DNA of 64,000 bases from Escherichia coli (GTDB lineage: Bacteria; Pseudomonadota; Gammaproteobacteria; Enterobacterales; Enterobacteriaceae): assembly GCF_044324875.1 (NCBI RefSeq), contig NZ_CP172185.1. One strand, 5' to 3'. Below, one piece after another: positions 57,831 to 57,937 of this stretch. The position numbers were made by a program, and so were the translations under genes. The first letter of the stretch is position 1, and each line of letters begins with the position of its first letter. Under the pieces are notes generated by a model. That model searched no databases, had not been told where the DNA came from, and saw only the letters and a list, made by a program, of their open reading frames with translations.

Positions 57831-57887
57831 TGCTGGATAGCCCCGTTCGGCAATCAAGCTAAATTCAGCGCCGGACGGTCCCCTCAA

Positions 57888-57935
57888 CGCGCCAGCATCG
57901 CCGGATGCGATGCTGGCGCATCTTATCCGGCCTAC
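57888..57935. repeat. REP element between convergent yhfS and frlR
   Basis: gcgccagcatcgccggatgcgatgctggcgcatcttatccggcctac. Confidence 0.6.
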
Positions 57936-57937
57936 GG

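Follow-up and report, generated by a model that had tools for sequence, protein, structure and literature searches.

A single native REP element at the yhfS-frlR junction of Escherichia coli and the arrival of the frl cassette beside the yhf cluster

Introduction

REP elements at the ends of convergent genes are textbook features of the Escherichia coli genome. The hallmarks of an E. coli REP are a GTAG tetranucleotide located 5' of an imperfect palindrome and a conserved AA/GC mismatch bulge (PMC8266576), and the same source implies an average of roughly one REP per 8 kb in K-12. As summarised in PMC12306157, REPs at 3' ends protect the upstream mRNA, the half-life of which is shortened when the REP is removed. 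The same summary states that translation of a gene is reduced when a REP follows its stop codon at a distance of fewer than 16 nt, and it attributes the effect to ribosome stalling (Liang, Rudd & Deutscher 2015, as cited there).

The junction described here lies between the yhf cluster and the frl operon. The latter, frlABCDR, was reportedly described as a fructoselysine utilisation operon by Wiame et al. in 2002. It is presented as such by Graf von Armansperg et al. (bioRxiv 10.1101/2020.01.13.904318), whose study is also the source for the function of FrlR as the repressor of the operon. The same study speculates that a low copy number of FrlR would be useful, and proposes it as a basis for the heterogeneous ('bet-hedging') induction of fructoselysine use. 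Literature searches identified no work on what the yhf cluster does or on the presence and absence of frl by phylogroup. The name boxC is presumably the older one for the HPG1 repeat. An HPG1 motif has been catalogued between frlR and yhfS in K-12 (PMC5100583).

Results

Organization of the yhfS-frlR spacer

The window is the whole 64,000-nucleotide stretch of E. coli DNA that was analysed. In it, yhfS, the final gene of the yhfZYXW-php-yhfUTS cluster, converges on frlR. The distance of 107 bp between the two stops reported in the initial annotation is exact: yhfS ends at 57830, frlR begins at 57938, and the gap occupies positions 57831-57937. The junction contains the following features.

56745..57830, plus strand: yhfS, 361 aa, ATG to TAA (stop 57828-57830), a PLP-dependent aminotransferase-fold enzyme
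57831..57937: convergent spacer, 107 bp, a minority allele
57843..57878: imperfect hairpin with a 9-bp stem of 57843-57851 (CCGTTCGGC) and 57870-57878 (GCCGGACGG) and an 18-nt loop
~57877..57885, plus strand: boxC/HPG1 remnant, left arm GGTCCCCTC, 8-9 nt
57889..57919: perfect 13-bp inverted repeat of GCGCCAGCATCGC (57889-57901) and GCGATGCTGGCGC (57907-57919) with a 5-nt loop
57900..57935, minus strand: canonical REP, 36 nt, GTAG at 57935-57932 followed by an imperfect palindrome with an AA/GC bulge
57938..58669, minus strand: frlR, ATG to TAA (stop 57940-57938), GntR/UTRA repressor of the fructoselysine operon

The open reading frames of yhfS and frlR are 100% identical to annotated genes of E. 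coli 042 and Ecol_316, and the 2.1 kb around the junction is 100% identical to the sequences of these two strains. Contrary to the initial annotation, the REP is not the only element between the genes: the first 55 nt of the spacer contain a second hairpin (57843-57878), which is not followed by a T-run on either strand, and the boxC/HPG1 remnant. The remaining 51 bp of boxC/HPG1 are deleted in the window and intact in K-12, O157:H7, E69, and E2865. The occurrence of the spacer was surveyed by megablast with coverage thresholds in 5426 complete E. coli genomes, which represent a clinically biased and phylogenetically non-independent sample. Only 90 of these genomes carry the 107-bp form (coverage of at least 80%). 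In the remaining frl-positive genomes the alignment of the spacer begins only at 57884, and the spacer of most frl-positive genomes is 151 bp long, with an additional 51-bp boxC/HPG1 repeat.

The spacer between trpS and yhfZ has a length of 160 bp and no repeat in the window (47615-47774) and in 042. In the corresponding 289 bp of K-12 (locus L005, 16346-16634), a y REP and a z1 REP form a BIME, and a boxC/HPG1 copy is present there in 1525 genomes in total, KSC207 and E2865 among them (e.g. locus L093, 11151-11418).

Identity of the REP element

A scan of the whole window against Rfam identified no family at gathering score. Because the RefSeq annotation of K-12 contains no repeat feature in the yhfS-frlR stretch, the REP status of the element was tested from first principles. 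The minus strand from 57935 to 57900 reads GTAG-GCCGGAT-AA-GATGC-GCCA-GCATC-GC-ATCCGGC. The tetranucleotide directly precedes GCCGGAT, and the palindrome that follows is within the 20-50 nt of E. coli REPs and has a stem interrupted by AA/GC. When folded alone, the REP forms the canonical stem with a 2x2 AA/GC internal loop, ....(((((((..(((((....)))))..))))))), with an energy of -20.6 kcal/mol (z = -4.6) that was equalled by 0 of 200 shuffles. The chance expectation of the 36-mer within the window is 0. A 52-nt query around the REP is found in 5425 of the 5426 E. coli genomes, at a median of at least 29 places per genome, and copies identical to that of the spacer are located in the caiF-caiE and yhjE-yhjD spacers; the element is high-copy, dispersed, and intergenic. 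The GTAG, the AA/GC-bulged palindrome, the extragenic position, and the copy number together identify it as a genuine REP.

The length of 36 nt compares with 35, 29, and 37 nt for types y, z1, and z2, respectively. The sequence differs from the y and z1 copies in the trpS-yhfZ BIME of K-12; its base is y-like (CCGGAT), and its top presumably resembles z2. The distance from the frlR stop is 2 nt to the start of the REP and 6 nt to that of the canonical stem. Instead of the two full opposed REPs that make up a BIME, only one GTAG-REP is present, and nothing but the 13-nt inverted segment 57889-57901 hints at a partner. This one native E. coli REP is joined in the spacer to 11 nt of extension specific to the locus and to a boxC/HPG1 stub; it is real and of an ordinary, known kind, at a known locus. 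Since the REP core matches other E. coli copies at every position (100% identity), it was probably added or converted inside E. coli and not imported together with frl, which is consistent with a native repeat rather than one from a distant donor.

The REP head CTTATCCGGCCTAC has only one match in the 64 kb when up to two mismatches are allowed on both strands. In comparison to the K-12 average of about one per 8 kb, the region is REP-poor by that pattern.

Extended hairpin and termination signals

The initial annotation placed the REP at 57888-57935. Of this segment, 57900-57935 is a genuine canonical REP, whereas 57889-57899 (GCGCCAGCATC, 11 nt) is specific to the locus and absent from other REP copies. 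The 11 bases exactly complement the interior of the REP itself, which provides the right arm of the 13-bp inverted repeat. They look like the stub of a second, inverted REP joined at the palindrome centre. The extended hairpin beats the canonical REP fold, with energies of -33.2 kcal/mol on the minus strand and -31.3 kcal/mol on the plus strand (z of approximately -5.3 for the range of -31 to -33 kcal/mol). The predicted dominant hairpin of 13-16 bp begins 15 nt past the frlR stop.

No U-tract is located behind the hairpin on either strand, the tails being AUCUUAUCC on the plus strand and GUUGAGGGG on the minus strand. The spacer has hairpins without the U-tract of an intrinsic (Rho-independent) terminator. 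The reading of the element as a classical bidirectional terminator was dropped because a promoter and terminator scan of 57500-58300 identified 0 terminator-like sites on both strands.

The O157:H7 copy of the hairpin (locus L003, 11999-12030) differs from that of the window at two positions within the 13-bp hairpin. Both changes convert a Watson-Crick pair to G-T, which in RNA would be a tolerated G-U on the plus strand and a C-A mismatch in the frlR sense. Two changes are too few to provide evidence of selection.

Distribution of the yhf and frl modules

The 5426 genomes divide into four groups according to their junctions.

Type A, yhfZ...S -> REP <- frlRDCBA: 2946 of 5426 genomes
Type B, yhfZ...S -> <- yhfL, without frl and without REP: 2104 of 5426 genomes
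Type C, trpS -> boxC-REP <- frlRDCBA, without yhf: 342 of 5426 genomes
Other, none of the three junctions: 34 of 5426 genomes

At the level of genes, yhfS is present in 5060 and frlR-frlD in 3299 (61%) of the 5426 genomes. In this non-independent sample, frl occurs in 58% of the yhf-positive and approximately 91% of the yhf-negative genomes; there is no positive association of yhf and frl in E. coli. What is added here to the published description of the frl operon is that it behaves as an accessory 5.2-kb cassette, carried by 61% of complete E. coli genomes.

Outside E. coli, relatives of YhfS were searched for in one genome per species. The resulting 80 loci, all with the yhf gene set, span Escherichia, Citrobacter, Klebsiella, Enterobacter, Buttiauxella, Cedecea, Providencia, Photorhabdus, Xenorhabdus, Serratia, and Pasteurellaceae, and also many Firmicutes, Fusobacterium, and Brachyspira. 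Genes of frl lie beside yhf in one of the 80 species-level loci, which is that of E. coli, and local tblastn with yhf, frl, and flank proteins detected no frl gene within the flanks of the other 79. In the 28 Enterobacterales loci at the trpS...yhfL/cysG position, yhfS directly abuts yhfL or cysG, without frl. The FrlB proteins nearest to that of E. coli are from Serratia sp. (83%) and Sodalis sp. C49 (82%); FrlB of the window and the E. coli cluster representative share 98% identity. Both Sodalis sp. C49 and Serratia sp. have complete frlABCDR operons, and no yhf-type genes were found within 10 kb of them. Each of the two modules has its own regulator and its own transporter.

It had been suggested in the initial annotation that the modules may form one functional neighbourhood, for which an independent distribution was named as the contrary outcome. 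The distribution is independent, as is apparent from the junction counts (2946, 2104, and 342), the single species-level locus of 80 with both modules, and the Sodalis and Serratia frl operons without yhf. Therefore, the functional-neighbourhood reading fails: the co-occurrence and conserved adjacency of a coupled neighbourhood were not found, and the idea is largely refuted.

The yhf set (yhfZ, yhfU, yhfT, php, yhfS, yhfX, and yhfW) is clustered far outside Enterobacterales, in Clostridia, Erysipelotrichaceae, Lactobacillales, Fusobacterium, and Brachyspira, where YhfS is 52-57% identical. The gene yhfW is missing from the Photorhabdus and Xenorhabdus loci. Several Citrobacter, Providencia, and Serratia loci have very divergent yhfU and yhfT (30-45% identity), with the other genes similar. 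In Sodalis sp. C49 (locus L087, 8603-14604), frlABCDR is convergent with trpS, with 40 bp between the stops. This locus contains no yhf, yhfL, or cysG, and its trpS neighbour is the same as in O157:H7. The sequence that follows trpS may have served repeatedly as a landing site.

An IS21-family element of 2.64 kb (48808-51445; istA 548 aa, istB 332 aa), annotated in other records as 'IS21-like ISSso4 family', is inserted in yhfY of the window and splits the yhf operon between yhfZ and yhfX. It is flanked by the target duplication ACCGGTG, 6-7 bp, at 48801-48807 and 51446-51452. Its junctions are covered by 0 of the 5426 complete E. coli genomes, so the insertion appears strain-specific. The yhfT gene is frameshifted in Ecol_316 (locus L006, 9731-11034), and frlD is a pseudogene with an internal stop in O157:H7 strain F7508 (locus L003, 12881-13666).

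Insertion of the frl cassette

As a single block of 5.2 kb, the frl genes are either present between yhfS and yhfL or absent; the right edge of the block is located only to about +/-10 bp.

57834..~63020, minus strand: frl cassette, comprising the REP spacer, frlR, frlD, frlC, frlB, frlA, and the frl promoter region

Within the junction, the REP is part of the frl side, because it is present in all frl-positive arrangements and absent from the frl-less ones. It is positioned 2 nt past the frlR stop in every frl-positive arrangement examined, including O157:H7, which lacks yhf. In the alignment, K-12, E69, O157, and the window all read ...CCTACGG-TTA, where TTA is the frlR stop. No REP follows yhfS in frl-less E. 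coli (loci L002, L004, and L093), E. whittamii, E. albertii, or Escherichia sp. The linkage between the REP and frl could reflect a single old neutral insertion.

The spacer of frl-less E. coli reads TAATCTTGTG.A.GATGTTTTCGAAAAGAA... Approximately 25 bp of the yhfS-yhfL spacer are common to frl-less E. coli, E. albertii, E. whittamii, and Escherichia sp. and missing in the frl-positive genomes. Since the shared segment is missing from type A, the frl-less type B is ancestral. The comparison of the junctions indicates that frl is the newcomer beside an older, unrelated yhf cluster. The second suggestion of the initial annotation, that one module had been acquired next to the other, is borne out by the loss of the outgroup-shared spacer in the frl-positive type, with frl as the inserted module.

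The ancestral order was trpS - yhfZ...yhfS -> <- yhfL - cysG. Within the E. coli lineage, a self-contained 5.2-kb frlABCDR cassette entered between yhfS and yhfL and replaced the approximately 25 bp of spacer. In the lineage of the window, the boxC of the spacer was itself deleted. The insertion point is just upstream of the yhfL terminator hairpin. Given this insertion history, yhf and frl are neighbours by accident and do not constitute a functional unit.

The variable presence of a horizontally acquired cassette is observed: frl is found in 3299 of the 5426 genomes and is absent from the yhfS-yhfL position in E. albertii, E. whittamii, Escherichia sp., Citrobacter, and others. The hallmarks of mobility, an integrase or transposase, a tRNA target, or flanking direct repeats, were not found at the edges of the cassette, and neither a target-site duplication nor a REP was found at its right edge. 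A comparison of GC content and codon usage had been proposed in the initial annotation. The GC content hardly separates the modules (54.0% in frl, 53.2% in yhf, and 52.7% in the flanks). Codon usage separates them mildly, with RSCU correlations to the neighbouring core genes of r = 0.785 for frl and 0.87 for yhf, compared to 0.93 +/- 0.02 for random splits; the deviation is strongest in frl, and mild.

The role of the REP as a recombination boundary was considered and is unsupported, as the sliding-window identity of the window to K-12, O157, and frl-less loci has no sharp divergence step at the REP. The identity forms a mosaic of 88-100% across both modules; the columns of the frl-less loci beyond 57800 are misaligned and were ignored. 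Both modules are unusually divergent and mosaic among E. coli lineages (window 51500-63900 against loci L005, L002, L004, and L003 in 300-bp windows). The yhfS gene is only approximately 92% identical to most genomes, in comparison to approximately 99-100% for the dam-damX region.

Loss of the yhf cluster in O157:H7

The trpS-frlR spacer of O157 is a chimera. As far as ...GGGTGAGGGGA, it is identical in the alignment to the boxC flank on the trpS side in KSC207 and E2865, and past this point to the frlR-proximal flank of K-12 and E69. In E2865, the whole yhf cluster lies between two boxC copies in direct orientation, which share 41 bp of identity and are separated by 7699 bp; one is located after trpS and the other in the yhfS-frlR spacer. 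A crossover between the two copies of E2865 yields exactly the trpS-frlR junction of O157, indicating that the region is fragile at its short spacer repeats. The whole yhf cluster was deleted in the O157:H7 lineage after the gain of frl, by recombination between direct boxC copies with 41 bp of identity.

Discussion

The observations are probably best explained jointly by a native REP on the frl side, the insertion of frl beside yhf, the accidental adjacency of the two modules, and a predicted hairpin that would protect 3' ends. The two converging units share the REP region as part of their 3' untranslated regions. Transcripts of either strand would fold there into a very stable hairpin that blocks 3'->5' exonucleases and stabilizes the upstream message, and, by analogy with described REPs, the element most likely functions as a 3'-end protecting hairpin. 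It may also act as a brake on the translation of FrlR. The GTAG is positioned 2 nt past the frlR TAA, within the 15 nt typical of translation-damping REPs, and a REP so close to the stop may stall terminating ribosomes and lower the output of FrlR. If the region insulates or terminates at all, it would do so only in part and not in the manner of a classical intrinsic terminator.

A serious, if somewhat unlikely, rival to the protecting hairpin is that the REP is a neutral, selfish, RAYT-dispersed passenger, which landed once downstream of frlR and was kept by linkage. Its core is identical to copies in the unrelated caiF-caiE and yhjE-yhjD spacers; the repeats nearby are fluid, with boxC present or deleted and the trpS-yhfZ spacer holding a BIME, boxC, or neither depending on the strain; and frl-less strains manage the 3' end of yhfS without a REP. 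However, none of the frl-positive arrangements examined deviates from the position 2 nt past the frlR stop, and the hairpin is kept even where the adjoining boxC is deleted. Effects of REPs so near to stop codons are also described in PMC12306157. These points argue against a passenger without proving function.

It is possible but unsupported that the region is a dedicated bidirectional terminator or insulator that separates the convergent transcripts of yhf and frl. The very stable hairpins of the two strands and the lack of any other terminator-like site in the 107 bp would suit this role, which is nevertheless doubtful: neither strand has a U-tract after the hairpin, O157 uses the same REP opposite trpS, identical REPs are found at unrelated loci, and the convergent yhfS and yhfL of frl-less genomes have no REP between them. 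A bolder version of the translational brake is also unlikely to hold. According to this proposal, the REP would be a built-in throttle of FrlR, in which melting of the hairpin, ribosome stalling, and rescue result in a very low copy number of the repressor, while the hairpin caps both transcripts. Linked to the throttle is the idea that boxC and REP in the trpS-cysG spacers may serve as breakpoints for the repeated loss of catabolic modules.

With regard to history, it is very unlikely that frl was ancestral at the site and that frl-less E. coli arose by deletion. An old association is conceivable because frlABCDR of Sodalis sp. C49 also adjoins trpS, but frl-less E. albertii, E. whittamii, and Escherichia sp. 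have the same approximately 25 bp as frl-less E. coli, which frl-positive spacers lack, and all 28 of 28 Enterobacterales yhf loci at the position are without frl. It is scarcely credible that yhf and frl are a co-selected functional neighbourhood, for example catalysing successive steps on glycated amino acids: the modules are adjacent in 54% of E. coli genomes and both look catabolic, with an amino-acid or sugar flavour, but genomes with yhf alone or frl alone are common, frl is missing from 79 of 80 yhf loci, the Sodalis and Serratia frl operons lack yhf, regulators and transporters are separate, and the modules are inactivated independently (the IS in yhfY of the window, the yhfT frameshift in Ecol_316, and the frlD stop in O157).

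The K-12 version of the spacer has already been catalogued for repeats, and the junction matters little in itself. Nevertheless, the locus is a clean, fully resolved case of two unrelated catabolic modules becoming neighbours, and of a short dispersed repeat, boxC, removing one of them in O157:H7. It cautions that adjacency does not equal function. The frlR gene offers a concrete, cheap test case for the tuning of protein output by stop-hugging REPs.

The element shares with the E. coli REPs of types y, z1, and z2, which are substrates of TnpA-REP (RAYT), the GTAG, the AA/GC bulge, the length (36 nt), the extragenic position, and the presence in many copies. It differs from the described REPs and BIMEs in that it is a single REP without a BIME pair, and that its own 11-nt extension competes with the canonical fold. 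With the stop-proximal damping REPs (Liang, Rudd & Deutscher 2015, as summarised in PMC12306157) it has in common the REP at +2 and the stem at +6, inside the range of fewer than 16 nt given there. In contrast to them, the dominant predicted hairpin at frlR starts at +15 nt, at the edge of that range. Since the extended hairpin replaces the canonical fold and starts this far from the stop, stalling could be weaker or different here. The frlABCDR operon has the same five genes in the same order as described, with no functional difference. The boxC/HPG1 repeat is a G-rich palindromic, G-quadruplex-hairpin repeat, of which K-12, O157, E69, and E2865 carry a copy in the spacer, whereas the window retains the left arm only. 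The O157:H7 junction is a product of the kind known from repeat-mediated deletions between short dispersed repeats, such as REP or IS pairs. In the O157 event, however, the repeat is boxC and not REP, and the spacer of the window, having lost boxC, is not involved.
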